A stretch of DNA of 64,000 nucleotides from Rickettsiales bacterium (GTDB lineage: Bacteria > Pseudomonadota > Alphaproteobacteria > Rickettsiales > JAIXRX01), in contig CBDFGH010000008.1 of assembly GCA_965247145.1 (NCBI GenBank), positions 32,345-96,344 on the forward strand, written 5' to 3'. The notes below the pieces were generated by a model. That model had not been told where the DNA came from. It saw nothing but the letters and a program-made list of their open reading frames with translations, and did not search any database. Positions 13,734 to 62,690 of the stretch are shown here, one piece after another. Both the position numbers and the translations under genes were made by a program. The stretch's first letter is position 1. Every line of letters starts with the position of its first letter.

Positions 13734-13819
13734 ATCCGTCATTGCGAGCGCAGCGAAGCAATCCAGCCGCACCGCGCGTGGAGAAGCTGGATTACCACAC
13801 TGCGCTCGCAATGACGGAT
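13734..13819. repeat. Palindromic element (GTCATTGCGAG subfamily)
   Basis: ATCCGTCATTGCGAGCGCAG...AATCCAGC / GCTGGATT...CTGCGCTCGCAATGACGGAT inverted arms. Confidence 0.88.
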
Positions 13820-28079: not shown

Positions 28080-28223
28080 CGTCATTCCCCGAATTCCGCA
28101 AAGCGAAATTATAGGGGAATCCATGAGATAGGTCCTGCATAGGGCACTGTATATTTGTCGCAAGAAACCAGGGACTGTGTGGATTCCCCTATAATTTTAC
28201 TGCGTAAAATTCGGGGAATGACG
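28080..28223. repeat. Palindromic element (GTCATTCCCCGAATT subfamily)
   Basis: CGTCATTCCCCGAATT...AATTATAGGGGAATCCA / TGGATTCCCCTATAATT...AATTCGGGGAATGACG. Confidence 0.88.
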
Positions 28224-46026: not shown

Positions 46027-49000
46027 TCAACCACCCTTCAGCTTGCATGCTTTGTCGTCTGGATGTTTCACGCAATAAGACGTGGTTTTATCATCGTTCC
46101 CCGAAGACGAGCAAACCGGTGATTTGGGATTGTCTTTGCAGAAACTCTCGCTGCCGCCGCCGGTGGGATTACACATTTCCTTGGTCGGATTGGTCTTGCA
46201 ATATTCCGCCTCGGCGTTGCATCCCTCGCCGCTCGGGTCGAGGGTGCAGCGGTCCAATTCGGTCGTGATGCATTTCTGATAGACCTCCTGCGGCTTCGAG
46301 AAATCACCCTTGCAAACCTCTGCGGCATCGCAATGCGGTTCTTTGGGTTGGGAAGCGCAGAAATCCTTGTCGTCCTTACAAGAGTCGCTGTTGGGGTCCA
46401 GTCCGCACGGGCCAAGCTGGTCGCGGATGCATTCGTTTGAACCGGAATCGACGATACAAGTGAGAGGCTGCTGCGTAAGGCCAGGATTTTCTGGGTCGAT
46501 GCCTGCTCCTTTGTAGAGTTTGTCGCGCGTGCTGCCATCCGGCACGATAGACTTATCGGGGCATTGATGGTCATCCTGGCCTGAACAGACATCGTTCACA
46601 TCGTCCATCAGTTTGTCCACCTCTTCCTGACGGGAACCGGGCATGCTGTCTTTGTCGTAGGCTTTGCGATATTGATCCATGCCATCATAGGGTTGGGAGG
46701 GAACGTCCGGTTTCTCTTCCTTCCCAGGCGTAGGCTTTGCGTCCAAATTTTGGTCGGGCAGCACATTGATCGCGGGAATGAGCTGTTTGGAGATATCGAT
46801 CGGCAGCACGTCGCCTGCGGAGGGCACGTAGCCTTCCACCGGTGTGAAGGTGTAATATTCGCCCGTTACGTTGCCGTCCTGGTCTTTCTTCTGGTCTTTA
46901 TGCAGCAGGTAATGCATCGGATCGGCCTTCTTTTCTCCCTTGATGACAAACAATTTATCATCCGCCGTGATTTTGATTCGGGCATAGCTGTCAAATTTGA
47001 TCGGCTCCTTGCATTGGCTGCGGAAAGAGACGCCATAGGGGAACGTCAATATACGCTCTTTGCCGGCGGGCACCTGCAACAAGGTATCCGGCGGGGTCAA
47101 CACAAGCACATCACTGTCAAAAATAGGTCTTTCCGAGCTGAGTCCCTGCTCGTATTTGGCTTTCAAATCGTCGTCGCCTACCAGATGATTAGTCAGCGTT
47201 ACCTTACCGTCCTTCACTTTCACGGCATTGTCCATGCAGGTTTTGCCCACGTCGTAGCAAGGCGGGAAGATGATATTGGCAACATCGTTCAACAAACCGC
47301 GAATGGCAAAACCGGGATATTTGGAAATAGCGATATCCGGCACACTTTGCGCCGCGTCCGGCTGGATGTCGCGCCCGTTGGGCGGCGTGCGGTTCAAAGT
47401 GGGTGGCATATGCAATTCCACATCCCCCACCACCACAGCCTGGGGACCTGTAGTGCGCTGACTAATAATCGGGCGCGGCAAGCCATCTTTCGGATTGAAG
47501 CCGGAGGTAGCAACCTGGCTGAGTTGAGTACCCAAGGCTGCGGCGCCGCCCGCATACAATGTATCCAACTGTCCTCGTGCACTCATACCCGCGAGATTGT
47601 CCGGGGCGCGCATCAGATCATCCAACGTTGGATTATCCCGAAGGCCTTCGAAACTATACAGTGCGCCCAAGGCATTGAACCCGGGCTTGATGGTCGATCC
47701 GCTATGGACCGGATCGAAATTCACGCCGATATTCACATCCACCGTCAGGCTGAGCAGCTGGCTGCTCTTGCTGCGCGGCACACCCACGAAGCCGATGTAT
47801 GGCTTATTGGCCATGCCGGGGAACATCGTCAGTAGCCGTGCAACCTGCGGATCCGGCCGCAGGCGGGCCAATACACTGAGAGGCAGATGCGAGATCTGGG
47901 AACCGAGGCTGGTGGTTTCATAACCGGGTCCGCGCACGTCGGCCACCACATCATATTTTTCCGCGTTCTTCATGGTATTGCGTGAGGCTGGCGGCGTGTC
48001 ATATCCGGCGGAAAGACAATCCATCACATCCTTCTCCGGAACCAGATGCATTTCATTGGGAGAAACGTTCGCGATATCCACGCGCTGATTGTTATTCGCT
48101 GCGGCGTTCGGGCGCACCATGCAGCCGCCGCGATAATCGTCGCCGTAAGGACGATAGATGCGCACCATGTTCCAGAGATCGAGCCCCTTGGCAGTAACGC
48201 GCGGGTCCTCGAAGCTGCATTCGCGCAGCATCGGGTCTGCCTGACAGCGGGTGTTGTAGACCGCGAAGCTGGTGTGATTCTGTACACTCTGCTGCACCAA
48301 TGCGTTGGTTTCCGAGTCAGGGAAATTGCAATTGGCACCACCCGCGCCGATGCAGCTTTGGAGACGCTTCAACGCAGTGAGCCTTGCAGCGGGTTTGGCG
48401 TTGTTGGGGTCTTCCAACTGAGCGGCATGACGGTAGATGGTCCGGTGACGGGCATTGCCCGCCAACTCGGTAATGCCGCAGGAATCGGGGTATTGCCCCG
48501 CATTGGTCTGCAGCACATGCACCCAATAGCGGTCGCGGCCCGCGGCGTTGGGCTGTTCACCCGGCTCGGCGGGATTGGCCGCGAGATAACTGCTGTCGTT
48601 AAAAGTTTCCGCTACGTAGCCGATGAAGGGTACATATTCGTCCGCAGCCATTTTGAAATTGTCGATGGCTTTTCCATCGCCGATGGGTTGCCGGGTTACA
48701 CGATCGGGATAGGCCACATTGTAATCCGAAGGATCGAGATAGACGATGTCTCCCGGCTGTGCATTGTCCAGGCCGCGCAGCACGGTGGCGGAAGCGCCCG
48801 GACGTTTGGCGAAATTGGGGAAGCGTGTATCGGAAGGAATATCCCAACGGTATATCTTCGAGTTGCTGTCGGGGATGTTGGCGATCTGCTTATCGTCCAT
48901 CTTCGGATCCCACAGGAACCCGCGATGCGACAAGGGCCATGTCACGGTGTGATCCTTGACGCCATTATTGAGCAACACGCTCCCACCGGCCATTTTCAGC

Positions 49001-52000
49001 ACCACGTCTTCCATCATATTCACTTTGTGCAGCTTTTCGAACTGCCCGATGCAATTGAGACCGGTATTGCGGTATGTGCGCGCCTGATACAGCTTCAATT
49101 CGGTCCAACTGGTCAGGGGGTGGACGGTGTTGTCGTTCGGCAGATGCACGCAAGCATCCCCCTTGAAGCGCGTTTTTCCATTGTCCAATGGATGGAAGGG
49201 ATCGTTATGGATGTTGTTCGTTTTATCCAATGCGGGGTCCAGACTTTTCGCTGTGGGATCCTCCTTGCCGAGATAACCCCAGCCGCCGATGCGGCATGAA
49301 CGCTCCGCCGTACCGACACCCACCACACGCACGCGCGCACCCAGATCGCTGTTCAGATCGATGTTCTTGCCGTTGATTGCACCCCACTCAGTGCCGGTAT
49401 CCCACAGTCGCATGTAAGGGCGGTGATCACCGAAATATTCTTCGAAGGTCGTACCTTCGGCAAACATGTTTCGATCTCTTTCCGCCTTGGTATAGGGCGC
49501 CAGGCGTAGCAGATTGATCGGCGCGAGCGGCTTGTTGATCTCGTTGCAGCAATCTTTGATGCTGACCTTACAGGTGTCCTTGCAGAAATCTTTATCGCGG
49601 TCCGGCATGCTACCCGAGGTGCTGCAGGGCGGGAATTTATTGCGTCCCTGCTTGGTGCGATCGGATTTACAGAAACTGACCGTGCCGATCTTGGCCACGC
49701 CCTGCCCCATTGAAGAATCCTTGCCTTTCTCGAACACGGCCTTGAACCCTTTGCGCAGTACATAGCGCGCGGGGAAGCAGAGTTGCGGGAATTTCCCGCC
49801 AAACCAGCTGCCGCAGATTTTCTTCGCCATGGGCCGCAGCGCGTCCTTCCAGAGTGAGCGATATTCGGATTTGAACTGGCTGTAGGCCTCTGAGAAATCG
49901 TAGGTATCGAAGCTTTGGAATATTTCGCGAATCTGGTTCATGTCCACCTGCCCATCCTCGAAAGGATCAAGCGTGCCCGTCAGGAAGCGGAACCACATGG
50001 TGTCGTAGGGATGGCCGGAGAACGATCCGTCCGAACCGCGCTTGCCTTCTTTCAGCAGCAGGATGAGTGCGCGGATCGGATCGATGATGCTTCGGCACTT
50101 ATTTTTACTGTTTCTTGCTTTACAATCTTTGTCCGAACTTTTCTTCGCCACCATCCATAGATTCTTGGCCTCGTTGTGCCCCATGGGATCGAAGAAAATG
50201 ATGTCCATGATGCCGACCACGATGTCGCCGCAGACCGTGATACCCCAGCATGCCGCTTTCGCAATGTAATAGAGCACAGCGCGAATGACTTCGATGATGA
50301 TCGAAATAATCGGCACGCCCTTGACCTCCGACCACAGACAATCGCGGTTGGTGGTGATGCGGCACATGATGCAATTGTCGAAGCGCTTTTCGCGGAAGCG
50401 GAGAATATCCACCGGGGTTGCGGCACAATTCACCGGCTGACCCCAAACGGGTATGCCGTTCATACCGGGAATCCACCAGAAATTTTTCGATCCGCAATAA
50501 TCCGGTTTATTGTTCAAACTCATCGAAACGCAAACATCGTATTTGTCGCGGTCGTTGGTTTCGAAATCCCAGCGCGGCGTGAAGGGATGCGTCACATCCT
50601 TGATCGACTCATAGGGGTTGGTGATCAGATCGGCGATTTGCGGGCGGAAATTACGCTCGCGGAAATTCAGCACGCCGCGCGGCTGGGGTAGATATTTCCC
50701 CGTTTCGTCTTCGTAATAATGGTCGATCCCCGGCGCCACGATCTGCGCATTGGGGTTGTGAATGTATTTGGTGATGGTCGTATCGTTCGGATTGGCGAGA
50801 TACTTTGCGAATTCCGCATTATATTCGTCCATGTAGCTTTCATCCCAATGATTGATCGTCGGGAAATAGATGGCGGGGAAGTAATTATTGACCATCGTGC
50901 CGTACCAGGCGCGTTCCAGATAACGCCACGCGTCATATTCGTGCCGCACGATACCGGTGGATTTGCCTTTGCTGTCGAGCTTGCATTTGCCGGTACTGGA
51001 ATCCCAATCGGACGGATGCTTGCACCGGTATTCGTCCACCATGCATTTGCCGTTGGCGTCTTTCATGCAATCATTGGGCGGAATGAGGCTGAGCGGCTGG
51101 CAATTGGTAGGCGTCATCGAGGGGCGCGACTGGGTGTCTGCGATATAGGTCGGATACAGGCTTTGGCTGGTGATGTATTGATTGGTGCAGCTGTCCAGCA
51201 TCAGACGCGTAAAGAAAGGTGGATTGCAGCCGTGATAGCTGCAGCCCGCTTTGGCAGGGCGGATCGGGCTGCAGGTAATGGCGTTCTTGATGGTGGGAAT
51301 CAGGATCGTCGTCAAAATATTCTGGCGCACATCCTGCGGCAATTTGAAATCGGTCGATTCGTCGCGGGGTGCAGTGTCGGTATCTTCGCGCAATTCGTCG
51401 ACCTCGTCGGTCAGCCACCCGTAGGTGGCAGGCGTGCGTGGGCAGGTGGAGCGCTCCAACCAGCCTTCGTTCAGGTTCAGCGGCGAAACACGCGGGGTGG
51501 TCATCCGCACCAATGTCTTTTCCGGCACCGACCCCGAAACACCGGCGGTCACCGGTTCGAAATTGAAACCGAAACCCAACACGGCGGTTTGCAATTGATA
51601 GCTCGCCTGCAGCAAGGGCGTGCCCAGGCGCTCAGCCGCACTGATATCGCCCGGTATCATTCCGATAGGGCGGAAATTGGTGTAGCGATTGTCACGCGTG
51701 AAACTGTTGATCATCGCATAAAGATTGGATTGCGAGATCGGCCAGACGATGGGCGGAATGCAGTAATAGATGCTGTAGTTCGGAGCGCGCAAGCACATCT
51801 GCTTGCGTAGATCATCGGCCACAGTGAAGAGTCCGGCAAATTTCTCCACCAGCTTGTCCATTTTATCGCGAAGCTTCGGCACCGCGTTAACCTTGGTGAT
51901 AAGGGCCGGAATCTGACCCGCGACTTTTTGGAAATTGAACAAAGCGGCGGGATTGAAATTCACCGAAATGTTCACCGAGGGTGCTACCGCGCCATCCAAT

Positions 52001-54336
52001 GCACGCATGGCGCCGATGGCGGTATTGAGCGGCCCTTTCATGGCCTCCGCTTTGTCCATCAGGGTGCGCATGGCAGGCGGAATGGGCAATACGGAAGGGG
52101 GACAGGTTGCGAGATTCTGTAGGCAGGCTATCGCCGCGCCATGACCCTGGGCGATTACCGTTTGCATGCGGCCCATCGAATCGAAGAAATGCTGGAATTG
52201 TTCCCTCGTGGGAGGGGGGGCTTGATTGTCTTTTCCCGTCAGATCCTTGCCATCGTTTTTGGCACGGGTCGCCTTTTTGAGCTTGTCCATTACATCCATT
52301 GCGCCGTTGAGGCTGCTGAGGTCGAGATTTTTCCCGCTGGCACTATTCAATGCCTTTGCATTTTCCAGCGCGTTGCTGGTCTCCGCCATACCGGAAGCGG
52401 CGCTCTTGGCGTCGTCCATTTTCTGCGCCATGTCGATGAGTTGTTTCAACGATTGCAGCGCACTTACGGCGCTGCGCACGGTCTGTGCAAAAACCACGAT
52501 CTTTCGGATCGTTTTCGCCGCCTCGTAGATTTTGATGAATAATTGAACAAGACCGGTGAAACCGTTCATGCCCAGCATGCCACTGAGAGAGTCGGTAATG
52601 TCGTCCTTGCTTAAACCGTTCTCCCCCGCCGATTCCAATGTGCTGAGCACATCGCCCAGCATGCCGCCGGTGCATGTGCCCGTGACGGAGGAAATGAGGC
52701 TTTTCACCTTGTCGGCGCTGCCATCCAGGTTGTTGGGAATGCTTGCCAAGGCACCCACGGCATTTCTCATGCCGTTTAGCTGGATGTTATAACCGCTCAA
52801 TTGATTGATGGCGGATTTGACTTTCGGGTCGTCGAGCATTTCGACTTCGGATACCGATCGCGTCATCCCGGTCGAAAGGATGCGGTGTTGCTGCATCAGA
52901 TCCTCAATGGCGGAAATCTCAACCGGGTCGGTTGCCTCCGCGGCCATCGCATTCAAATCCGCCCCCAGCGATTTGAAGTTGTCCACATCCGCCTTCGAGG
53001 CCCGGATGCTGGAAATGGCTTGGTCCAAATTCCCAGAGACGATGGCGCTGGCACCGGCCGCCGCATCCGACATCAGACCCACATTGGCCGCCACACTGCC
53101 AAGATCGCCAATCTTACCGATGACCCCATTGACGTCTTTCATCGTTTCGTCGAATTTATCGAAATCATCCGTTTCGCTGGAATCGACATTCAGACAGGCA
53201 TTGTCGTTGCGAGTGACCCCGGTATTGCTCGGCAACGGACATTGGGCCGCCTGGGCGGGCATCAGATCGTCCGAACTGGGTTTCTCCACCGCTTCCGACG
53301 GTTGGGGACCCGCGGCGTTGCCCAGCCTGGGCTCAGGTTGAAGGGTCGATTCGTCGTCACCGGTGCTGGGGGCGGTAATGCTGCCCTGCAAAGGGTCGGT
53401 ATCTGGCGGGTTTTGGGCCGCAGGGCCAAATTTGTTCGGATCTTCGAAACCGGGGTCGTCTGCCGGTTTCTTCTTATTTACCGGCGGTTCTATGCTGGGA
53501 TCGGGCACTAGGCCCTGCATGACCGATAAGGCAGGCGCGGCCATACCCAGCATACCGCCCGTGCCGGAAACACTGGCTGTTTTCAGCAGAGGATCGTTGG
53601 ATTTTTCGCTGTCTTCACGCGGCAGATGCAGATTGTGCAAAATGCGCACCACGCCTTCCGGACCCCCGAAATTTTTTAATGTCACACCTGCTTCGGGGAT
53701 GCGATCGAGGGCTTGGCGGATAAAGGCCTGATCGTTCAGCATCGGGCGCAATTCATCGATGGAAGAACCCACCGCCTGCATGACCGCCTCTAATTCATAA
53801 TAATCCATGCCGCTGATCGAGCCGACCGCTTTCTGCAGCCGGTCCGGCCCCATTTCGGCCAATACTTTGGCCAGACGGCGCCCTTCCTTGGGCAATTCGC
53901 TGATACTCAGATTCGGCACCGTATGCAACGCCATCACCGAATGCAGGGTGGATTCGACATCCGCGATCGCTTTCTCCGACATGCCGCGCATGTGCCGCGG
54001 CAGCATGTTCCAATTACCTTCCAGATACGGCTTCAATTCCGGCTTGGTCTTCAGCATGTCGTTCCAGAAGCCTTTGATATCGGATTCGGTCATGGGTCGG
54101 TCGGTTTTGGGATCGATCATGTAATGATCGCCTTCACGGAAAAATTCCTTGAACTCTTCCATGCTGATGACAGGCTTGCTGCCGTCATATTTCGCATAGT
54201 CCATCGGTGTCAGCGCGCGGGCGGCGGTGGCGGATAAACACAGCATTCCGAGCATTGCCCAACACGCCCAAAGGCGACCATGTCGCCATGCGCCTACTCT
54301 ACCACGAAGGAATTGGGGAGGATGGAATTGGGACAC
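46027..54336 (-). CDS. Giant (2769 aa) secreted cysteine-rich protein of unknown function
   Basis: Uninterrupted 8.3 kb ORF; signal peptide ending ATAARA; many Cys pairs; C-terminal CxxxPxxxxC repeats. Confidence 0.9.
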   Translation of the reverse strand: MSQFHPPQFLRGRVGAWRHGRLWACWAMLGMLCLSATAARALTPMDYAKYDGSKPVISMEEFKEFFREGDHYMIDPKTDRPMTESDIKGFWNDMLKTKPELKPYLEGNWNMLPRHMRGMSEKAIADVESTLHSVMALHTVPNLSISELPKEGRRLAKVLAEMGPDRLQKAVGSISGMDYYELEAVMQAVGSSIDELRPMLNDQAFIRQALDRIPEAGVTLKNFGGPEGVVRILHNLHLPREDSEKSNDPLLKTASVSGTGGMLGMAAPALSVMQGLVPDPSIEPPVNKKKPADDPGFEDPNKFGPAAQNPPDTDPLQGSITAPSTGDDESTLQPEPRLGNAAGPQPSEAVEKPSSDDLMPAQAAQCPLPSNTGVTRNDNACLNVDSSETDDFDKFDETMKDVNGVIGKIGDLGSVAANVGLMSDAAAGASAIVSGNLDQAISSIRASKADVDNFKSLGADLNAMAAEATDPVEISAIEDLMQQHRILSTGMTRSVSEVEMLDDPKVKSAINQLSGYNIQLNGMRNAVGALASIPNNLDGSADKVKSLISSVTGTCTGGMLGDVLSTLESAGENGLSKDDITDSLSGMLGMNGFTGLVQLFIKIYEAAKTIRKIVVFAQTVRSAVSALQSLKQLIDMAQKMDDAKSAASGMAETSNALENAKALNSASGKNLDLSSLNGAMDVMDKLKKATRAKNDGKDLTGKDNQAPPPTREQFQHFFDSMGRMQTVIAQGHGAAIACLQNLATCPPSVLPIPPAMRTLMDKAEAMKGPLNTAIGAMRALDGAVAPSVNISVNFNPAALFNFQKVAGQIPALITKVNAVPKLRDKMDKLVEKFAGLFTVADDLRKQMCLRAPNYSIYYCIPPIVWPISQSNLYAMINSFTRDNRYTNFRPIGMIPGDISAAERLGTPLLQASYQLQTAVLGFGFNFEPVTAGVSGSVPEKTLVRMTTPRVSPLNLNEGWLERSTCPRTPATYGWLTDEVDELREDTDTAPRDESTDFKLPQDVRQNILTTILIPTIKNAITCSPIRPAKAGCSYHGCNPPFFTRLMLDSCTNQYITSQSLYPTYIADTQSRPSMTPTNCQPLSLIPPNDCMKDANGKCMVDEYRCKHPSDWDSSTGKCKLDSKGKSTGIVRHEYDAWRYLERAWYGTMVNNYFPAIYFPTINHWDESYMDEYNAEFAKYLANPNDTTITKYIHNPNAQIVAPGIDHYYEDETGKYLPQPRGVLNFRERNFRPQIADLITNPYESIKDVTHPFTPRWDFETNDRDKYDVCVSMSLNNKPDYCGSKNFWWIPGMNGIPVWGQPVNCAATPVDILRFREKRFDNCIMCRITTNRDCLWSEVKGVPIISIIIEVIRAVLYYIAKAACWGITVCGDIVVGIMDIIFFDPMGHNEAKNLWMVAKKSSDKDCKARNSKNKCRSIIDPIRALILLLKEGKRGSDGSFSGHPYDTMWFRFLTGTLDPFEDGQVDMNQIREIFQSFDTYDFSEAYSQFKSEYRSLWKDALRPMAKKICGSWFGGKFPQLCFPARYVLRKGFKAVFEKGKDSSMGQGVAKIGTVSFCKSDRTKQGRNKFPPCSTSGSMPDRDKDFCKDTCKVSIKDCCNEINKPLAPINLLRLAPYTKAERDRNMFAEGTTFEEYFGDHRPYMRLWDTGTEWGAINGKNIDLNSDLGARVRVVGVGTAERSCRIGGWGYLGKEDPTAKSLDPALDKTNNIHNDPFHPLDNGKTRFKGDACVHLPNDNTVHPLTSWTELKLYQARTYRNTGLNCIGQFEKLHKVNMMEDVVLKMAGGSVLLNNGVKDHTVTWPLSHRGFLWDPKMDDKQIANIPDSNSKIYRWDIPSDTRFPNFAKRPGASATVLRGLDNAQPGDIVYLDPSDYNVAYPDRVTRQPIGDGKAIDNFKMAADEYVPFIGYVAETFNDSSYLAANPAEPGEQPNAAGRDRYWVHVLQTNAGQYPDSCGITELAGNARHRTIYRHAAQLEDPNNAKPAARLTALKRLQSCIGAGGANCNFPDSETNALVQQSVQNHTSFAVYNTRCQADPMLRECSFEDPRVTAKGLDLWNMVRIYRPYGDDYRGGCMVRPNAAANNNQRVDIANVSPNEMHLVPEKDVMDCLSAGYDTPPASRNTMKNAEKYDVVADVRGPGYETTSLGSQISHLPLSVLARLRPDPQVARLLTMFPGMANKPYIGFVGVPRSKSSQLLSLTVDVNIGVNFDPVHSGSTIKPGFNALGALYSFEGLRDNPTLDDLMRAPDNLAGMSARGQLDTLYAGGAAALGTQLSQVATSGFNPKDGLPRPIISQRTTGPQAVVVGDVELHMPPTLNRTPPNGRDIQPDAAQSVPDIAISKYPGFAIRGLLNDVANIIFPPCYDVGKTCMDNAVKVKDGKVTLTNHLVGDDDLKAKYEQGLSSERPIFDSDVLVLTPPDTLLQVPAGKERILTFPYGVSFRSQCKEPIKFDSYARIKITADDKLFVIKGEKKADPMHYLLHKDQKKDQDGNVTGEYYTFTPVEGYVPSAGDVLPIDISKQLIPAINVLPDQNLDAKPTPGKEEKPDVPSQPYDGMDQYRKAYDKDSMPGSRQEEVDKLMDDVNDVCSGQDDHQCPDKSIVPDGSTRDKLYKGAGIDPENPGLTQQPLTCIVDSGSNECIRDQLGPCGLDPNSDSCKDDKDFCASQPKEPHCDAAEVCKGDFSKPQEVYQKCITTELDRCTLDPSGEGCNAEAEYCKTNPTKEMCNPTGGGSESFCKDNPKSPVCSSSGNDDKTTSYCVKHPDDKACKLKGG

Positions 54337-54523: not shown

Positions 54524-55321
54524 ATGCCACAACCCAATCGTAACAATTCGACCGAAGCGCCAGATTTTGCCCAGGCGGGGGAAGTCGACAGCGGCGTGTA
54601 TTTTCAACGTGCCCGCGCCTGGTCGCGCATGTTGTACGATTTTCCCATCGTCGAGCGCAGCTATGCGTTGCTGGCGCTGTTTATCATATGGCTGACGCTG
54701 CTGTTGGCGATCATCATTTTCTTTTCATTCGATCCGCTGGTGCGGCCCGTGCGCGTACCGTTCGAAAACCCCAACAGTGGCGAAGATATACCGCGTATCG
54801 TCACCCTCTCGGGCCGCGACCGCGCACCGCTGCAGAAATCCGTTGCACGCTACATCGCCCAGCATTACGCCGTGGCACGGGAGAATTATCGTTACGATCG
54901 CGAGACCATCGATTCTCAATATCGTCTCGTTTACAATCTGAGCGCACCCGATGTTTTCGATGCCTACCGCAGCACTCTGCAACCGAGCAACCCACAAAGC
55001 CCGCTGGCGCGCTTTGAGCGTCATACGACATTGCAGGCGCTTTATCCCGTCACCGAACTCGAGGTTTCCGCACCGTCCCGTGGGCTGGTGCGCGGTCAGG
55101 CACGCGTGACCTACACAGAACGTATCAACGGTCCGGGCGGCTACAAACAGGCGCGGCGCAGCGCGACCTTCGAATTTACCATGAGCGAAATATCCGTTCA
55201 CAAAGAGGATAATCGTGTCTACCAATACAATGACCAAACCGGGCAGGATGAAAAGCTGACCGGCGCGATTAATTTCCGCGTGACCCGCTATCAATCCCCA
55301 ACCGAGTCGCCCCGCCCATGA
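54524..55321 (+). CDS. virB8: VirB8-family T4SS protein (RvhB8-like, atypical)
   Basis: YFQRARAW N-terminus, single TM, YAVARENYRY, VYNLSAPDVFDAY, C-terminal FRVTRY; coupled to virB9. Confidence 0.8.
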   Translation: MPQPNRNNSTEAPDFAQAGEVDSGVYFQRARAWSRMLYDFPIVERSYALLALFIIWLTLLLAIIIFFSFDPLVRPVRVPFENPNSGEDIPRIVTLSGRDRAPLQKSVARYIAQHYAVARENYRYDRETIDSQYRLVYNLSAPDVFDAYRSTLQPSNPQSPLARFERHTTLQALYPVTELEVSAPSRGLVRGQARVTYTERINGPGGYKQARRSATFEFTMSEISVHKEDNRVYQYNDQTGQDEKLTGAINFRVTRYQSPTESPRP

Positions 55322-56271
55322 TCCTTCATTCCATGATCTCAGCGTTCCGCTCCCTGCCCTCCATGTTGCGTCCGCTCGCGGTGGCTTTGCTGCTGACCCC
55401 CGCACTGGCAGGCCCTGCTTTCGCACTGCGCGACAGCCGGCCGCTGGCCACCGACCAGCGCATTCACACCATGATGTACAGTGCGGATGAGGTCTATAAA
55501 TTCACCGGCCATTATGGCTTTCAATCCACGATCGAATTCGCTGCCGACGAAGAAATCCAGACTATCTCCATGGGCGATTCGGTAGCATGGTTGTTGGAAC
55601 CTTCGGGCAATCGCATTTTCCTGAAGCCACTGGAACAAAACGCCACCACCAACATGACGGTGCTGACCAACAAGCGCAGCTATCTCTTTGAGCTGCATGC
55701 GCGCGAAGCCAGCGGCATCAGCGATCCGCAGCTCGTTTTCGTCCTACGCTTCATGTACCCCTCCGACAGCAACGATTATATTTCCGGGCTGGGATCGATC
55801 GACAATACCGTGCCGGACCTGGACGACCCGGAAGAACGCGGCAAGCTGAACTTCAATTATACTCTGCGCGGCAAGGAAACCATCGCACCGCTGCGGGTGT
55901 TCGACGATGGGGAATTCACTTTCTTCGAATTCCGCAACAAAAACGCCGATGTGCCCGCCTTTTTTCTGGTCGACAGCACCGGCAAGGAAGCCCTCATCAA
56001 CTACCGCACGCGGGGAGACTACATCGTGGTCGAGCGCGTTTGGGGCGTCTATACCCTGCGTCACGGCTCGGATCTGGTCTGCGTGTATAACGAATCTTGG
56101 AACGGCGGTGCGGGCCGCAACGTAGCCGCCGGAGATAAAGTTTCCGCCGCTCCTGTCTCTGCCCGATCCGCTGCGATGAGCGAATCTAGAGGCGACCTAA
56201 AAAACGAGCAGTTCATCACGCCGACCGGTGCGGGCGCCGCAGCGGCGAGCAACGCACCGGTCGGCCGTTAG
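55318..56271 (+). CDS. virB9: VirB9/TrbG-family T4SS outer-membrane core protein
   Basis: Signal peptide, DQRIHTMMY, ISMGDSVAW, RIFLKP, TNMTVLTNKRSYLFEL, NFNY, VFDDGEFTFFEF, INYR. Confidence 0.93.
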   Translation: MILHSMISAFRSLPSMLRPLAVALLLTPALAGPAFALRDSRPLATDQRIHTMMYSADEVYKFTGHYGFQSTIEFAADEEIQTISMGDSVAWLLEPSGNRIFLKPLEQNATTNMTVLTNKRSYLFELHAREASGISDPQLVFVLRFMYPSDSNDYISGLGSIDNTVPDLDDPEERGKLNFNYTLRGKETIAPLRVFDDGEFTFFEFRNKNADVPAFFLVDSTGKEALINYRTRGDYIVVERVWGVYTLRHGSDLVCVYNESWNGGAGRNVAAGDKVSAAPVSARSAAMSESRGDLKNEQFITPTGAGAAAASNAPVGR

Positions 56272-56277
56272 CCTGTC

Positions 56278-57048
56278 TTAGTTGCGGCGCACACAGCGTA
56301 TTGGGAAACTGTTACCGCGACCGTAATTCTCATATGTGCCGTAACGCATCTGAATGCGCATAACGTCCGAGTCGTTCAGCTCGCTGGAGGTCCAATACGA
56401 AGTGCTGTCGCTTTGAACGAACCCATAGGCAGCTCCCAGTTCATATTGATTGTTGAACAACACACCCATTTCGTACGAAGTGGGTAGATACCAGTCTGTA
56501 TGACCGCCGTAATTTAGGTTTTTGCAATAGAAGTGCGCGGGATAGTTGCTGTTGGCCAAGCTGCGTGTGCCGGGATAACCGTAGCGCATGATATTGCCCA
56601 TGTTTGGATTGCCACCGCCGGATTGCCATTGCATCGAAGGGTCGGTGCCGGCGCCGGTAGGAGAAGCGCAACTGGGTGCGGCGGCGGTTCCGGTGCAGCC
56701 CGCCGGGCTCACTACCAAATTGCCGTCTCCCGCAAAAATTCCGCCGCCGCAATCGCTGCCGATGACGCCGCTACAGAGGGTTACGGTGTAGGTGCCGTCG
56801 GCGCCGATCAGTGGCACGCCATACATGCGGCTGTCGGTGGTGCCGGGCGCAGCGATCACCGTGGTGGTCGTCGTGGTCGTGCCCGTGCCGCCCGGTTCCT
56901 TCCAATCGGTGCCGTTGCAGAAATAAAGTTTTTTCAGCGCGCTGTCATACCGCAACGATCCTTCCGTGCCGGACGGCGAAGCGCAGGCGGCTTGTGCCTC
57001 GATGGGCAATGCAAACATTGCCAGAACGAGAAAAATAAATCCTTTCAT
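56278..57048 (-). CDS. Secreted DUF1566 (Lcl C-terminal)-like protein
   Basis: Signal peptide; YCKNL..GG..DWYLPT.YE...YWTSSE...IRCVRR signature. Confidence 0.82.
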   Translation of the reverse strand: MKGFIFLVLAMFALPIEAQAACASPSGTEGSLRYDSALKKLYFCNGTDWKEPGGTGTTTTTTTVIAAPGTTDSRMYGVPLIGADGTYTVTLCSGVIGSDCGGGIFAGDGNLVVSPAGCTGTAAAPSCASPTGAGTDPSMQWQSGGGNPNMGNIMRYGYPGTRSLANSNYPAHFYCKNLNYGGHTDWYLPTSYEMGVLFNNQYELGAAYGFVQSDSTSYWTSSELNDSDVMRIQMRYGTYENYGRGNSFPIRCVRRN

Positions 57049-57061
57049 GGGGTCTTCCTCT

Positions 57062-57862
57062 CTAATTGCGACGTACGCAACGGATGGCGTAATTTTGGTC
57101 TTTGGTGTCGATATTGGATTGCCCCCCTGTCGAGGTCGGATCTCCAGGCCGTACGAGGTAATGGTATGCCGTTACATGGTGGAAACGCTGCCCGTTATAT
57201 GCTTCGCTCGCCGACATATAATTGATGTTGTAGCCATTGTAATATGACCCCCCGATATCGGAAAGCGACTGCACGAACAATTCCGTTTCGTACAAGGTCG
57301 GCACATACCAATCGCTGTAGGTCACACCGCCCACGCTGAAAGACAGATTCCGGCAATATTGGAAAGCGGGATAGTTGCTGTTGTTGTTCGATTGGTTGGT
57401 CGCATAGCCATAGCGTTGACTCGACATGGTGGTAGGGCTGTTGGAGGTTTCGTAGCGGTTGTAATAAGTGTCCCGCCCCGCATAGGGTGCCTGAGTAACG
57501 CCGCCCACCGTTTCGGTCGGGCAGGTCGTGCCACTGCAGCCCGCACCCGTGGCCACCAGATTGCCGTCCCCGATGTAGAATCCTCCCCCGCACCGGCTGC
57601 CGATGGCGCCGCCGCAGAGATTGACCACATTGCTGCCCCCTGCCCCGACAACGGGAATTCCGTTCAATAAATTCGGCGCTCCGGCAGTATCGACGACCCA
57701 GTTGGTGCCATCGCACTTATACACTCTTCGTTCGGCGCTGACATATTTGTAACTGCCCAAAACGCCAGCAGGGCTTGAGCATGCGGCCCAGGCGGCTTCG
57801 GAAAAACCCATGCACAGAAATGCCATGGCGAGAGATAAACGAAACGTGAGTTGATTCATCAT
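57062..57862 (-). CDS. Secreted DUF1566 (Lcl C-terminal)-like protein, paralog of 56278-57048
   Basis: Signal peptide; YCRNL...DWYVPTLYE...YMSASE...IRCVRRN. Confidence 0.8.
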   Translation of the reverse strand: MMNQLTFRLSLAMAFLCMGFSEAAWAACSSPAGVLGSYKYVSAERRVYKCDGTNWVVDTAGAPNLLNGIPVVGAGGSNVVNLCGGAIGSRCGGGFYIGDGNLVATGAGCSGTTCPTETVGGVTQAPYAGRDTYYNRYETSNSPTTMSSQRYGYATNQSNNNSNYPAFQYCRNLSFSVGGVTYSDWYVPTLYETELFVQSLSDIGGSYYNGYNINYMSASEAYNGQRFHHVTAYHYLVRPGDPTSTGGQSNIDTKDQNYAIRCVRRN

Positions 57863-57868
57863 ACTATC

Positions 57869-59632
57869 CTAATTGGCAATGCACCCCATCCATCCGCTGG
57901 GATCGGCACTCATGCGGTAGATATGGCTGGTACTGTTGAAGATATCGCCCCAGTTGCTGCCGTTTGCGCAGCTCTGCGACTCGGGTGGGCGCTGCCCCGC
58001 ACAACTTGCTGGACATGCTTGCGTTGTGGCGGGTTTGTCGCCGGGGACACAGGTCGCGCCACTGGGGCAATAGACAGTGCGCGTCTGCACCGAACCGGTC
58101 GCGTTGCAGCTGACGGAGCGGGTTTGGAAGCCGCCGCCGCAGGTATTGTCGCAGGTCGTCCAGCTGCCTGCATCCCAGAAAGGTAGAGGGGCGCAGCTGC
58201 CCCAAGGACCGGCCACCCAGCCACCGCAGGGCTGCGCGTTGCAGCTTTGCGATTGCGCGGGCGAAGAGCCGCAACTGCTGACGGTGCAGCTTTCGCTGGA
58301 ACTGGGTTTCACTCCATCGCACACGCCGCTGGCGCAGGTGGGGGTGCGGGTATGAATACCGGTACGGCTGCGGCAGGAAGCGGTGCGGTATTGCGTACCG
58401 CTGCCACAGGTAGCGCTGCACTCGCCCCAATCCGAAAGCTCCCAGTCTCCCACGGTGATGGTAACGCCGGCACTGTCTTTACACGCACTCCATGCGCCCG
58501 GATCCCAGGCATTGGCACATGTGCCTAGATTGCAGGCTTTCTGCGAAGGCGGCGGGGTGGTGGTACAGCCGGTGAAGGGCCGCGAGGTGGGCGGTTTGGG
58601 CGCCAGACAATCGACACCGACCGTCTGCGAACAGCTCGTTGCACCCGCCACGTTCACACAATCTACGTTGAGGCTGAGCGTGCCGCTTGCGGTGGAATTG
58701 CAACTGACCGTGCGGCTTTGCACGCCGTCTCCACAGCTTTGGGAACACGCGCTGTAACCCATATCCGGCGTGCCGTTGTTGTATGTGGTTCCCGCCGCGC
58801 CGTTGATCGCGTTGATGCTCCATTCGCCGCCGGGCGTGGTTCCGGTAGTCGGCGTCACCGACCATCGGCATTCCTGGCTTTTGGATTTGGCATTCTGAAA
58901 GGAGCGACCCGCCAGAATGAACGCGGCATTGCATTTACGCCCGACATTGGCGGCGTAACCGCGTGTGGTCGCATCGCGGCATGCGCCGGCGGTTACGCCA
59001 TTGCCTTCCTCGACCACCATCTGCCCGTTGCTGGGCGAGCCGTCATCGATCATGCGGTCGATGCGCTCGGCTTCTTCCGGTGTGAGCGGCCCACTGCCGC
59101 TGGTTTCGGTAAAAGAACCGTCCGCTGCGGTGATTTGAATCAAGTGGATCACGGCAACCACGCGGTCGGGTTTACGGCCTTCGATGGTCAGGGCCGCACC
59201 GGAACCCGCCGCGCTGGGCGGATAGACTTTGCCGATATTTCGGCTATTGGCGCTGAGCGTGAATTTTATCAGGCCAGCACGGGAAAGATGTTCCCAGAAC
59301 AGGCGCTGCTCGAGCAAAGCCTGCGCCGGGTCGTCGCTTGCCAGATCGATGCGGCCATTGCCATTGCCGTTGCAGCCGCTGCAGGCGAAAAGGCCGCTCG
59401 CATCCGAAGTATCGCCAGGGAAGGAATTGTAGCGCTCCTGATAAATCTGCACGGCGCGGCGCAGATCGGCCAATTCCTTAGCCACGTTGCGCAGCGCCGC
59501 GTCGCGCGTAAGGCTGCTGGCAGCCAGAGTTCCGGCCACGATGAAGCCGAAAATGGCCAACACCATGGCCATTTCTATGAGGGTGAAGCCGCGACGTTTT
59601 CGAACCGATGAGGGGTGGTGCGCTACGGACAT
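57869..59632 (-). CDS. Prepilin-type (type IV pilin/pseudopilin) protein with C-terminal thrombospondin type-1 repeats
   Basis: RKRRG|FTLIEMAMVL cleavage motif; pilin head (YNSFPGD, IDRMIDDG); WGECSATCGSGTQYR and WTTCDNTCGGGFQTR TSP1 motifs. Confidence 0.9.
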   Translation of the reverse strand: MSVAHHPSSVRKRRGFTLIEMAMVLAIFGFIVAGTLAASSLTRDAALRNVAKELADLRRAVQIYQERYNSFPGDTSDASGLFACSGCNGNGNGRIDLASDDPAQALLEQRLFWEHLSRAGLIKFTLSANSRNIGKVYPPSAAGSGAALTIEGRKPDRVVAVIHLIQITAADGSFTETSGSGPLTPEEAERIDRMIDDGSPSNGQMVVEEGNGVTAGACRDATTRGYAANVGRKCNAAFILAGRSFQNAKSKSQECRWSVTPTTGTTPGGEWSINAINGAAGTTYNNGTPDMGYSACSQSCGDGVQSRTVSCNSTASGTLSLNVDCVNVAGATSCSQTVGVDCLAPKPPTSRPFTGCTTTPPPSQKACNLGTCANAWDPGAWSACKDSAGVTITVGDWELSDWGECSATCGSGTQYRTASCRSRTGIHTRTPTCASGVCDGVKPSSSESCTVSSCGSSPAQSQSCNAQPCGGWVAGPWGSCAPLPFWDAGSWTTCDNTCGGGFQTRSVSCNATGSVQTRTVYCPSGATCVPGDKPATTQACPASCAGQRPPESQSCANGSNWGDIFNSTSHIYRMSADPSGWMGCIAN

Positions 59633-60663
59633 GTCGAACCATCCTTCCAATCGCCATCGCAGCAGATCAAGGTGGTGCCGGAAGTGCCTTTCGCTCGTGT
59701 ATCGCCGTGGCGTATGCCCCCCGCTGCCAAAGGAAGCGGATTGGTGCCGGTAAACTTGATGCGCTGCACGCAATTTTCCGGTTGGTTCTTCATGACTGTG
59801 GTTGCGCCCGAGGGCTCGTAGCCGCAACGTACAGGCGGCTGGCAATTTCTCTTTTCCACCAGTATCGGCACTACGACATCGTCGAATACGCCATCTTCGT
59901 TGTGCCAGTTGTCGGCGGTGTAGCGCTGCAGATCGCTGTCGAAATCGCAGTTGGTGGAATCGTAGCCGTTGGCGACGCAACTCTGCATGGTACCGTAAGA
60001 ACTGATGGCGCCGTTTTGGTTGGGCCCGGCACTGATGAGCAGGCCTACCGGGCGTTGCACACCGGCATTGAGCAGCGGCCAACCGCGCAGATCATTGGGC
60101 GTGGTGCTGCCCACGCTGTATATTTGGAACGGCGATCCGTAGGCGGTGGGCAGGACGGTGGGCGAAACACCGGCCGTGGTATTGGCCAATTGCGTATCCA
60201 TCACATAGACGATCTTATTTCCCCAGCCGTCCAGCATCGCGTCTTGCGGCAGGTTCAAGGCCATCACCGGCACGGCGCCTGCCACCACGGTACTGCCGGC
60301 ATTGCAGAATACGCCCTGGTAACTCTTGGTGGTGGGGTCGCAATTACCAGGAATGGCGGCTTTCCAGCAATCCAGCACTGGCTTTTGGAAAGCGGTGGCG
60401 GTGTAGGAACGGTCATAGCGTGCCGGGCATGGCAGAATGCGGTGCCCGACATCGTATTTGCTGTAATTCTGGATCGCCAGTTCGATCATGCGCAGCCGCA
60501 CCTGGGTCGTGCGCAGGCGTTTGCGCGACTCACTCGCTTCGTTGGGCAGAAGCAGCACCACCGCCGCACTCAGCACCAGCAGAATCGCGGCGATGGCGAT
60601 CAAGGTGAACCCCGCCTCCGAAGCATGCGAGCCGATGATGGGGCGCGGGGGCGCGGGGTGCAT
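59623..60663 (-). CDS. Prepilin-type minor pilin/pseudopilin lacking Glu5
   Basis: EAG|FTLIAIAAIL; LPCPA, GAVP...L.LP, DGWGNKIVY, LISAGPN, FDDVV. Confidence 0.87.
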   Translation of the reverse strand: MHPAPPRPIIGSHASEAGFTLIAIAAILLVLSAAVVLLLPNEASESRKRLRTTQVRLRMIELAIQNYSKYDVGHRILPCPARYDRSYTATAFQKPVLDCWKAAIPGNCDPTTKSYQGVFCNAGSTVVAGAVPVMALNLPQDAMLDGWGNKIVYVMDTQLANTTAGVSPTVLPTAYGSPFQIYSVGSTTPNDLRGWPLLNAGVQRPVGLLISAGPNQNGAISSYGTMQSCVANGYDSTNCDFDSDLQRYTADNWHNEDGVFDDVVVPILVEKRNCQPPVRCGYEPSGATTVMKNQPENCVQRIKFTGTNPLPLAAGGIRHGDTRAKGTSGTTLICCDGDWKDGSTCP

Positions 60664-60665
60664 CG

Positions 60666-61553
60666 CTAAAATTGATACGCGGTTTTCCAGCGCACGAAAT
60701 CATCGAAATACGTCGCGGTGGTATCGCTGTAGGTGATGGTGGCGTCGCGGAAAATATTGTTGAACTGGGGCACGGTGATATGGGCATTGGTCTCCTCGAT
60801 CGGACCGCCGCCAATGGTGCCGATGGTGCTGATATTGCGGCGCGCTATGCCGCTGGTGGCGCGATTCGCCCAGGCACCGAAACCGTTGGCGCCATAGGAA
60901 AACAAGACGTAGACCGCCCGTGCGCCCGGCCCCACGGCAGCACAATCGCCGCCGCAATTGGTTTTTTCGTTGCCGTTGGCGTCCTGAATGATGATCGCCG
61001 CCGCGCCGGCAGCGGTGGTGTCCGTGTTCCAGCAAGTCGTCGCGCTTGTGACGCCGCGCGTGTAATTGTTATCCACCACATACATGATGCGATTGTTCCA
61101 GCCATCGAACGCATAGGCATCCGGTATGCTCAGCGTGCGCGTGGGCACCACCCCGACCAGAGTATAACGCGCCTGATCGACGTTGCCCGATCCCCAACAA
61201 GCGGCGGCGCGAGTGCCGTTGCCGAACGCGTAATAGGCATTGGGATGTCCGCCCGCGCAATCCTGCCGCCCGAAGGGGTTCGAGGAAACTTCGTCGATCC
61301 CCGCATCACCCCGCGCTGGACAAGGCAGCGTGCCGTAAGTCTGCACATACAATTTTAATGCATCTTCCACGCGGTCGAGGCGATTGCGCGTTTCCTCTAC
61401 GCGGCCCGCCTGCAGTTTATCTGCATAAATGGAAAGCCCGCCGCCCATGATCACCGCGATGATAGTGAGCACGATGGCCAGCTCGATCAGCGTAAAACCC
61501 ACGCGGTTTGCGCGCTGGGCGACATGCAGAGGTGAGGGGTGGAAATGCGGCAT
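60666..61553 (-). CDS. Prepilin-type N-terminal cleavage/methylation protein
   Basis: RVG|FTLIELAIVL; LPCPA, GVVPTRTL, DGWNNRIMY, SYGANG, FDDFVRW. Confidence 0.92.
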   Translation of the reverse strand: MPHFHPSPLHVAQRANRVGFTLIELAIVLTIIAVIMGGGLSIYADKLQAGRVEETRNRLDRVEDALKLYVQTYGTLPCPARGDAGIDEVSSNPFGRQDCAGGHPNAYYAFGNGTRAAACWGSGNVDQARYTLVGVVPTRTLSIPDAYAFDGWNNRIMYVVDNNYTRGVTSATTCWNTDTTAAGAAAIIIQDANGNEKTNCGGDCAAVGPGARAVYVLFSYGANGFGAWANRATSGIARRNISTIGTIGGGPIEETNAHITVPQFNNIFRDATITYSDTTATYFDDFVRWKTAYQF

Positions 61554-61606
61554 GCGAAAACCTTCGGCGGCGAAGCGGTTTGGGAATCAGACTAGGCCGG
61601 ATAGGT

Positions 61607-61621
61607 TGAATATTTGGTTAA
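61607..61621 (-). promoter_or_regulatory. CtrA-like box upstream of the pilin operon
   Basis: Minus strand TTAA-CCAAATA-TTCA, one mismatch to TTAA-N7-TTAA, about 55 bp upstream of the first pilin ATG. Confidence 0.5.
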
Positions 61622-61887
61622 GATTGCCGCGAATGTCGTGGGCTTTCCAGGGGCTCGGTGGTCCCTGCGTCATTTCGAACCACCTGATATTCACCCTCGA
61701 TCGCACTCGGTACAGAGTTCGGCTGTGGATGGGCGCGCATGGAGCGGCGGAAACGGTGTATCCGCCATGCTAGGAAAACCGCCAGCACGCTGCCCAGCAA
61801 TACCAAAAACACAGTCCCGAAAATCAGCGCCACCAGCAGCAAGCCGCCCAGCGCGATGGAACCGATGGCCCCGAGGATGAAGGCCAT
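61618..61887 (-). CDS. Small hypothetical membrane protein
   Basis: Hydrophobic N-terminal half and AIEGEYQVV tail; starts 2 nt after the fliP stop. Confidence 0.7.
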   Translation of the reverse strand: MAFILGAIGSIALGGLLLVALIFGTVFLVLLGSVLAVFLAWRIHRFRRSMRAHPQPNSVPSAIEGEYQVVRNDAGTTEPLESPRHSRQS

Positions 61888-61889
61888 GT

Positions 61890-62690
61890 CTACCCGCCCC
61901 CAACCCCGATGCCGTAGCTTTTCACCAAACTGCCCGCCACCATGTACCAGCCATCCACCAGCACGAAGAAAATGAGCTTGAAGGGCAGCGAGATCATCAC
62001 CGGCGGCAGCATCATCATCCCCATCGACATCAATACGGAGGCGACCAGCATGTCGATGATAAGAAACGGTATGAAGATCAGGAAGCCGATTTCGAACGCG
62101 CGCTTGAGTTCGGTGAGCATGAAGGCCGGAATGAGCACCTGATAGGGCGTCTCTTCGGCTTTTTCCACTTTCAGATTCGGTTGCATCTGCATGAAGAGTT
62201 CGATGTCCTTGTCGCGCACATGGGAAAGCATGAAACCGCGGAACGGCTCGGCGGCGGCCTTGATCGCCTCCTCCTCGCCCATGCGCTCTTCCATCAGCGG
62301 CTTGATGCCGTCTTCGTAGGATTTCTCGAAGACCGGGGCCATGATGAAGAGCGTGAGGAACAGCGCCAGGCTGGTCAGCACCTGGTTCGGCGGCGTGGTC
62401 TGCAGCCCGATGGCGTTGCGCAGAAAAGACAGCACCACGATGATGCGGGTGAAGGAGGTCATCATGACGAGGATGGAAGGCGCGAGTGCCAGCACGGTGA
62501 CCAGCAACAGAATTTGAATCACCCGCGCACTGGCCGACCCGCTGGAAGGCCCGCCCATGCCCGCCACGTTCAGCGAGAATTGCTGCGCATGCGCGAGTTG
62601 GGGCAAGGCGAAGATTGCAGCGAATATCAACGCAGCGACCACCCAGCCAAACGCGCCGTCGCTGCGAAAGCCGCCCCCCAATCGCGTCAC
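61890..62690 (-). CDS. fliP: Flagellar export pore protein FliP
   Basis: MTSFTRIIVVLS, PPNQV, ELKRAFEIGF, MGMMMLPP, FVLVDGW. GTG start chosen from a GAGGG RBS; the frame stays open to 62837. Confidence 0.97.
   Translation of the reverse strand: MTRLGGGFRSDGAFGWVVAALIFAAIFALPQLAHAQQFSLNVAGMGGPSSGSASARVIQILLLVTVLALAPSILVMMTSFTRIIVVLSFLRNAIGLQTTPPNQVLTSLALFLTLFIMAPVFEKSYEDGIKPLMEERMGEEEAIKAAAEPFRGFMLSHVRDKDIELFMQMQPNLKVEKAEETPYQVLIPAFMLTELKRAFEIGFLIFIPFLIIDMLVASVLMSMGMMMLPPVMISLPFKLIFFVLVDGWYMVAGSLVKSYGIGVGGG

Follow-up and report, generated by a model that had tools for sequence, protein, structure and literature searches.

Three prepilin-type genes, one with thrombospondin repeats, joined to two Lcl_C/DUF1566 genes in a Rickettsiales genome: a candidate adhesion module of a type IV pilus

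What is the function of a tightly packed block of five genes in which three encode prepilin-type proteins and the other two encode exported proteins with similarity to a bacterial lectin-like adhesin domain? The question is raised by a stretch of 64,000 nucleotides (nt) of DNA from a Rickettsiales bacterium, referred to below as the window, which corresponds to G000:C8:32345-96344 in a genome of 2.36 Mb (11 contigs, 94% complete; here G000). A first-pass annotation of the window proposed that the five genes at window positions 56278-61553 form an undescribed adhesion system at the tip of a pilus. G000 has a single retractile type IVa pilus, and on the reading that we favour, to which we attach roughly even confidence, the five genes supply it with an accessory module for adhesion. 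The module is probably presented by the pilus, and it would represent a variant of the modular-pilin and tip-adhesin systems rather than an entirely separate kind of system.

All five genes lie on the minus strand of the window, and the open reading frame (ORF) coordinates reproduce exactly the junctions reported initially, namely 2, -10, 6 and 13 nt from gene 1 to gene 5. The first three genes encode prepilin-type proteins, also as initially reported, with class III leaders of 14–19 residues that are each followed by a hydrophobic stretch in the translation. Gene 1 (P0001; 60666..61553; 295 residues) has the leader ...RVG|FTLIE and matches the Pfam family N_methyl with 25.9 bits (cut-off 21.2). 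Gene 2 (P0002; 59623..60663; 346 residues) has the processing site EAG|FTLIA, without the glutamate at position +5 (Glu5), and matches no Pfam family at E <= 0.01, N_methyl included; its hydrophobic helix is present. Gene 3 (P0003; 57869..59632; 587 residues) lies within a longer ORF (57869-60082), and its start was set at the ATG at 59632 because the homologs P0010 and P0016 start at the same place. It consists of two parts: 1) a pilin module of approximately residues 1-262 (58847..59632) with the leader ..RRG|FTLIE and an N_methyl match of 28.8 bits at residues 11-35, and 2) a C-terminal extension of approximately residues 263-587 (57869..58846) that contains three thrombospondin type-1 (TSP1) repeats and then a short tail in which W.GC is conserved.

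Genes 4 (P0004; 57062..57862; 266 residues) and 5 (P0005; 56278..57048; 256 residues) have no pilin leader. Instead, each begins with a Sec-type signal (read by eye as ..AWA|AC and ..AQA|AC), followed by a Cys-loop head motif, the pattern CGGG.[YF].GDGNLV, and a C-terminal domain of the Lcl_C/DUF1566 type (PF07603, cut-off 34.9 bits) ending in IRCVRRN. The match to Lcl_C is 49.4 bits for gene 5 and 19 bits, below the cut-off, for gene 4; the two proteins are paralogs with 34% identity (E 5e-40). The description of both as Sec-exported DUF1566-like proteins can be kept and made more specific by the name Lcl_C, with the signals resting on inspection; the label Cys-rich fits them only moderately (8 and 9 Cys, 3.1-3.4%).

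A pilus module requires a machine, and the first-pass annotation had correctly noted that the window holds no assembly ATPase, secretin or prepilin peptidase and that these would have to act in trans. The search of the genome found a set that looks complete. Contig C7 encodes PilB (T2SSE family, 405 bits, plus an MshEN domain), PilC (T2SSF family, 166.6 bits) and two PilT-like ATPases, and contig C2 encodes a 710-residue secretin and PilD; a separate Tad set is found on contig C10. Peptidase_A24 proteins occur on C2 (PilD) and, as a second copy, on C3. The T2SSE-family matches over the cut-off are PilB, the two PilT proteins, CpaF, a VirB11-like ATPase and an orphan ATPase; the platform proteins of the genome are PilC and TadB/TadC only, and there are only two secretins. 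The presence of two PilT genes speaks for a retractile pilus, and on the evidence of these gene sets the machinery of G000 is one retractile type IVa-like pilus machine. The orphan T2SSE-family ATPase, on contig C1, was considered as part of a second pilus machine and set aside; by ORF inspection only, it lies beside lpt/rpoN and response-regulator genes. The families PilY1 (PF05567), PilW, PilX, FimU and GspK were not matched by any of the five proteins in the Pfam search. A genome-wide search for PilY1 also gave no match, but its control was silent in every genome, so that absence of PilY1 is not implied.

This inventory bears on an alternative in which the three pilins serve secretion, forming the piston or tip of a pilus or pseudopilus whose cargo would be the products of genes 4 and 5, either in soluble form or retained at the surface. 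The Sec signals and the lack of a pilin leader in genes 4 and 5 would suit such cargo, the export of TcpF and CofJ by type IVb pili offers an analogy, and genes 1 and 3 have, in their N-terminal helices, weak matches to the NCBIfam models for GspH, GspG and GspI, all far below the cut-offs. Lcl itself is a secreted, surface-associated protein in L. pneumophila, and the passage that describes it as such also covers exports of the type II secretion system (T2SS) (PMC11162425). We consider this alternative quite unlikely given that no separate T2SS was recognised in G000, in a survey where GspC/L/M were not searched for, and that the two PilT genes suggest a retractile pilus; further evidence against it comes from relatives, as described below.

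Gene 3 is the member of the operon in which a pilin and a recognisable binding module are joined in a single protein. The TSP1 repeats reported in it initially are borne out by matches to TSP1_ADAMTS (PF19030, cut-off 23.8 bits; 79.6 bits in three stretches) and TSP_1 (PF00090, cut-off 21.6 bits; 32.2 bits) at residues 293-541. Three CSxxCGxGxxxR cores are located at residues 296, 405 and 494, the second and third of them preceded by W..W..C, and the protein contains 34 Cys in total. The best-known occurrences of TSP1 are in matrix proteins of animals and in adhesins of apicomplexans, and in eukaryotes the repeats bind matrix and glycan ligands. Since the protein combines a pilin module with a domain that is not pilus-specific, it falls under the definition of a modular pilin given in PMC8179133. 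The 325-residue extension suits a location at the tip or sparse display along the fibre.

The two halves of gene 3 differ in how widely they are distributed. Residues ~10-250 belong to a multi-copy pilin family of ~250 residues, distinct from the family of genes 1 and 2, that is present in 33 of 41 genomes of the order and reaches at least 32 matches in a single genome of 1-2.6 Mb. The consensus of this family includes GFTLVELSIVLVIIGLI.., LPGD, NGNGNG and ID.K.DDG.P; many copies are fused to long extensions, and a motif scan found 13 stand-alone copies in G000. TSP1, on the other hand, occurs in only two of the 41 genomes, G000 and the sister genus G001, and was not found elsewhere in the G000 genome; likewise, the search of the 41 genomes with gene 3 gave a match reaching the repeat region only in G001. 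Near full-length relatives of gene 3 are limited to four (P0010, P0011, P0016 and P0017) among 1.84 billion representatives. Both N_methyl and TSP1 are recognised by Pfam in P0010, P0016 and P0017, and P0011 is related by full-length alignment only. A closer relative, P0159, has 61% identity over the repeats and the same pilin plus TSP1 architecture according to precomputed domains. P0016 (592 residues) has the same N-terminus as the gene-3-like protein of G001 and appears to be the full length of that protein. The other TSP1 matches of gene 3 are a protein from a metagenome-assembled genome of Myxococcota and metazoan ADAMTS-like proteins. A sequence search of the PDB with P0003 gave nothing significant.

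Gene 2 is a paralog of gene 1 (E 5e-14, with 28% identity in an alignment of 189 residues), and both belong to a family that is found, with 1-9 matches per genome, in 33 of the 41 genomes. In ten loci that were fetched, the family forms tandem arrays of 2-3 genes, adjoined by a PilD homolog in five of the ten and by rpiB in six; in one of them (L041), for example, the order by Pfam is rpiB, glyA, nrdR, two pilins and an A24 peptidase. G000 retains nrdR, glyA, rpiB and pilD in the order of its relatives at G000:C2:102715-105853. There rpiB abuts pilD, which leaves no room for pilin genes between them, and the array has therefore been relocated. Its new position is downstream of fliP, in G000 as well as in G001, the only other genome of the same family (75% complete). 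The order in G001 is fliP, a small ORF, a gene-1-like gene (G|FTLIE), a gene-2-like gene (G|FSMLL) and a gene-3-like gene with a TSP1 match, inside which the contig stops. Thus the sister genus has the trio of pilin genes as well, together with a gene 2 that has lost Glu5 and a pilin fused to TSP1.

Residue +5 is Ala in gene 2 and Leu in its G001 ortholog. Among 27 further members of the family that were examined, Glu5 is absent only from that same G001 ortholog and kept in the remaining 26; on this sequence comparison, the loss is a derived trait common to gene 2 and its sister-genus ortholog. Gene 1 contains the motifs LPCPA, DGW and FDDFV. In an alignment of the family (A3: window 59623-61553 with loci L030, L039-L049 and L094), the globular part shows the near-invariant motifs LPCPA, DGWG, SHGxNGxGAW, ENAH and FDDIV, which look like a binding or metal site. 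Gene 2 ends in a Cys-rich C-terminal extension (..LICCDGDWKDGSTCP). Past the N-terminal helix the family has no Pfam or NCBIfam assignment, and gene 2 in particular has only N-terminal NCBIfam matches far below the cut-offs, with no membership in T2SSK/GspK or PilX. The model of P0002 (predicted local distance difference test, pLDDT, 72.6) has a pilin-like layout, with a helix at residues 21-70 and strands after it. At least 30 of the 40 structural matches listed by VIA-align are pilins or pseudopilins, of which the best is 9iuf_A (Z 5.9, root-mean-square deviation 3.7, 152 residues); GspK (3ci0_K) is one weak entry among many pilins (Z 3.4). When the soluble regions of the three pilins were submitted to complex prediction, gene 2 being the partner and no controls being included, the score was 0.00 against a mark of 0.32, which is uninformative.

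The proximity of the gene 1/2 family to pilD also raises the possibility that genes 1 and 2 encode the major pilins of the fibre and that gene 3 encodes an occasional decorated subunit of the shaft, a reading that partly overlaps with ours and that we consider unlikely. In some well-studied bacteria the major pilin gene lies beside pilD, as members of this family do in five of the ten loci of relatives, and the motif scan of G000 found no classical short pilin of ~150 residues that might build the fibre instead. Against this stands the fact that neither genus of the family has Glu5 in its gene 2; Glu5 loss is associated with cap subunits such as GspK and PilX. GspK has been placed at the tip (PMC8179133). 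In addition, the globular motifs are strongly conserved across the order, which we take to be unusual for exposed major pilins, and the 13 stand-alone pilins of the ~250-residue family are other candidates for the fibre of G000.

The connection between the Lcl_C domain and pili comes from relatives in which the two are fused. Three pilins in two genomes of the order end in an Lcl_C-like domain: a giant pilin of 2444 residues in G034 (L094:3960-11294) with N_methyl, 20 FG-GAP stretches and Lcl_C at 22 bits, and two pilins in G013, one of 1136 residues (L095:6233-9643; Lcl_C 33.2 bits) and one of 903 residues (L096:5175-7886; Lcl_C 29 bits, with Sushi-like matches). The motifs WYLP..EL, YWSS and RC.RR are present in all three. 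From these fusions it follows that the Lcl_C domain is linked to pili in the order; they also favour display of the domain over its release, contrary to the secretion alternative. In G065, a same-genus genome, an Lcl_C-like match is located at the end of a 2216-residue open frame. An RTX-repeat protein is encoded next to the giant pilin gene of G034.

Close relatives of genes 4 and 5 are rare. Only four, all metagenomic, were found among 5.8 billion clusters, and no full-length relative was found in the 40 nearest genomes. A profile of genes 4/5 matched 27 loci in genome contigs, all of them distant matches to the C-terminal Lcl_C domain (Bacteroidota, Treponema and similar), and four loci in metagenome contigs, of which three have the head motif only and one has a short Lcl_C stretch. 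No ORFs with a pilin motif were seen in the fetched stretches of these four metagenome loci, and no relatives were found in viral contigs. Gene 5 matches phrog_4245 (E 4.4e-10) and the head motif matches phrog_5231 (E 6e-4); in a protein atlas, phage Lcl_C proteins make up most of the nearest look-alike clusters, with a score (0.90) that is borderline. The Lcl_C domain, like the head motif, seems to be a receptor-binding module of a general kind. The alignment of genes 4/5 (A2) gave nothing significant against PDB sequences, and the model of P0005, built from an alignment of five rows, is too poor to use (pLDDT 38.3). Lcl_C was not found elsewhere in the G000 genome.

The head motif (C..P.G..G...Y....FC[DN]G..W) also has a distribution of its own. 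It directly follows the Sec signal in four proteins of G000, whose C-termini are Lcl_C in two cases, Laminin_G_3 in one and no recognised domain in one. The lectin-like Laminin_G_3 domain belongs to the protein at C9:309-1136 (-). Another of the proteins, at C7:150750-151676 (+), is encoded just downstream of pilB; it was not found in 40 relatives with this query, and the adjacency is not conserved. The C-terminus of gene 2 (..LICCDGDWKDG..) resembles the head motif. DUF1566 is a known type of target of diversity-generating retroelements (PMC6642488), and genes 4 and 5 were considered as such targets; the 64-kb window has no template and variable repeats, in an examination where reverse transcriptase was not searched for, and the reading was dropped. 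The repeats in the window that touch genes 4 and 5 reflect paralogy only.

Several observations weigh against the reading as an adhesion module presented by the pilus. Among 401 genomes (190 genera) of the order, full-length matches of genes 4 and 5 occur only in G000, so that the conserved linkage of pilin and DUF1566 genes which the first-pass annotation expected in relatives was not found, with the G001 contig stopping inside the gene-3-like gene. The G+C content of genes 4 and 5 is 0.55-0.57, compared to 0.60-0.62 in genes 1–3, and this lower value means that the two genes may be a later insertion with a physical link only. The Lcl_C domains of the fused pilins are all below the Pfam cut-off (22, 33.2 and 29 against 34.9 bits). 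The structural matches of P0002 have Z scores of 4-6, a range that the alignment tool calls common, and Foldseek against the PDB with the same model gave no match at E <= 0.001. The position of the gene 1/2 family beside pilD is one that a major pilin would share, and a dedicated tip role is therefore not established. Finally, the 64-nt gap that separates gene 1 from the small ORF and fliP upstream contains no predicted promoter, and the limits of the operon are not fixed.

The first two of these observations are what one would expect if genes 4 and 5 were independent secreted lectin-like proteins, possibly of phage or other horizontal origin, inserted 3' of a self-sufficient pilin operon. The phage look-alikes and the phrog matches agree with such an origin, and Lcl_C proteins occur in a relative without any pilin match (G005). 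This explanation, which we regard as somewhat unlikely, has to account for same-strand gaps of just 6 and 13 nt, in which independent expression has little room, and for the fusions, which show that the domain is used on pili in the order. Moreover, no prophage genes were recognised beside genes 4 and 5 among the neighbours scanned with Pfam, where virB8 and virB9 were found instead, and neither viral relatives nor repeats of the retroelement type were detected. Terminator-like and promoter-like sites are not in excess inside the five-gene block: in the region 55800-62200, one promoter-like site was found (2.9 expected from shuffles) and six terminator-like sites (6.4 expected). Genes 4 and 5 are apparently co-transcribed with the pilin genes.

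On the favoured reading, genes 1 and 2 would be this lineage's copies of the array that adjoins the prepilin peptidase gene in other families of the order. PilD would cleave all three prepilins, and PilB, PilC, PilT and the secretin, encoded on other contigs, would assemble the products. The gene 2 product lacking Glu5 would act with the gene 1 product as a cap or initiator, and the gene 3 product would display its three TSP1 repeats at or near the pilus tip. The products of genes 4 and 5, exported by the Sec pathway, would add a second, lectin-like binding activity, whether attached to the pilus or set free next to it. In this scheme we infer the location at the tip, the co-assembly of the three pilins, the contact of the Lcl_C proteins with the pilus, and the ligand. 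Because the domain of Lcl binds sulphated glycosaminoglycans and TSP1 binds matrix or glycans, a eukaryote-type surface is a reasonable guess for the target, and by this analogy a sulphated glycan or matrix ligand of eukaryote type is suggested. The tip or priming complex proposed initially is thus upheld as regards the prepilins, the loss of Glu5 and the modular gene 3; genes 1 and 2 turn out to be a relocated pilD-linked array and are possibly fibre subunits.

A more specific version of this scheme treats the locus as a split, non-covalent counterpart of the giant pilin-Lcl_C fusions. The heads of the gene 4 and 5 products would dock onto gene 2 and, with gene 3, make a tip that is independent of PilY1 and targets eukaryote-type sulphated glycans. 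Docking would take place via the N-terminal head hairpin onto the gene 2 product, whose C-terminus has a look-alike CCDGDW hairpin, and the pilus tip would be exchangeable. We regard this version, taken as a whole, as very unlikely.

On the 5' side of gene 1, and on the same strand, are fliO, fliP and an ORF of 89 residues, the latter being the small ORF mentioned above. On the other side, a VirB8-like gene and a VirB9/CagX gene (54524-56271, +) share 4 nt and run towards gene 5; the stop codons of virB9 and gene 5 are only 6 nt apart. These are a second copy; another VirB9 is encoded at 67874-68902 of contig C10, near the VirB11-like ATPase. Divergent from virB8 is an ORF of 2769 residues (46027-54336, -; with a lower G+C of 0.555) that matches no Pfam family at E <= 0.01 and has a C-terminal part that, by eye, is repetitive and Cys-rich. 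Far from the five-gene block, intergenic-looking DNA of the window contains two near-perfect inverted repeats, one at 28080-28223 with 44-nt arms 56 nt apart and the other at 13734-13819 with abutting arms of 43 nt.

The genomic background is that of an order with genomes of 1-3 Mb and dozens of pilin paralogs per genome, including modular pilins of up to 2444 residues with FG-GAP, Sushi-like and Lcl_C modules. G000 carries a flagellum, a type IV pilus, Tad and a VirB-type system with its second virB8/virB9 copy. Genes for the ATP/ADP translocase (TLC) are present in nine of the 41 genomes, among them five of the eight genomes without pilin matches, and absent from G000 and G001. G000 thereby resembles the environmental Rickettsiales families as described in PMC9352585, with a larger genome, higher GC, flagellum, type IV pilus and Tad, and no translocase; similar environmental relatives of obligate intracellular alphaproteobacteria are described in PMC10847448 as well. 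This wider context may matter more than the operon itself. It points to pilus-mediated attachment as a major and rapidly diversifying interface, and should glycans of a host, or matrix-like molecules, prove to be the ligands, the genes would provide defined proteins with which to probe the origin of extracellular, host-associated lifestyles. Should the split-fusion version be true, an environmental relative of obligate intracellular bacteria would attach via animal-like modules on a retractile pilus.

How, then, does the locus compare with known systems? It had been called undescribed, a term that fits only in part, given that modular pilins and tip adhesins are of a kind already known (PMC8179133), and modular pilins are a recognised route to many functions on one pilus. 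The nearest parallel is found in the modular pilins of Streptococcus sanguinis, in which the added module is of the von Willebrand factor type A (vWA) kind in PilB and a lectin in PilC; the pilus displays these proteins, whose targets are proteins or glycans of the host (PMC8179133, PMC9934059). Gene 3 is like them in combining a class III pilin module with an adhesion domain that is not specific to pili, and unlike them in that its module consists of three TSP1 repeats and its host is a diderm proteobacterium. We found no literature on TSP1 or DUF1566 as a pilin module, and Dataset S1 of PMC8179133 (264 architectures) may list a TSP1 pilin.

The operon also resembles the minor-pilin/PilY1 operons of type IVa pili and the GspI-GspJ-GspK tip of the T2SS in having several pilin-like genes, one of them without Glu5. 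The likeness to the PilY1 operons extends, by analogy, to the presence of a gene for a Sec-exported, non-pilin candidate adhesin in the same operon as the pilins. In contrast to those tips, there are three pilins only, drawn from two order-specific families, and in contrast to PilY1, a beta-propeller protein of ~1000 residues, genes 4 and 5 encode proteins of ~250 residues with an Lcl_C domain.

The C-terminal DUF1566 domain of Legionella Lcl is a C-type-lectin-like trimer that binds sulphated glycosaminoglycans (PMC11162425). Gene 5 shares with Lcl a domain over the Pfam Lcl_C cut-off; the trimer and the glycan binding are known for Lcl alone. The C-terminal domain of Lcl is described as being without disulfides, whereas genes 4 and 5 hold 8-9 Cys. 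The two proteins also differ from Lcl in having neither a collagen-like repeat nor an N-terminal coiled coil, and the match to the NCBIfam equivalog model of Lcl is 20.5 bits against a cut-off of 500.

In type IVb pili, CofJ and TcpF are secreted partners that depend on the pilus. The locus in G000 is like the CofB and TcpB systems in that a bulky modular minor pilin (for CofB, PMC8179133) is encoded in an operon with a Sec-exported protein. It differs from CofB/CofJ and TcpB/TcpF in that the machinery is type IVa-like, with PilT, and the likeness is offered as an analogy only, with no relation in sequence or fold shown. Set beside all of these systems, what is new in this locus is the occurrence of TSP1 on a pilin, its pairing with a member of an order-specific array that lacks Glu5, and the stand-alone Lcl_C partners that mirror the pilin-Lcl_C fusions of relatives.

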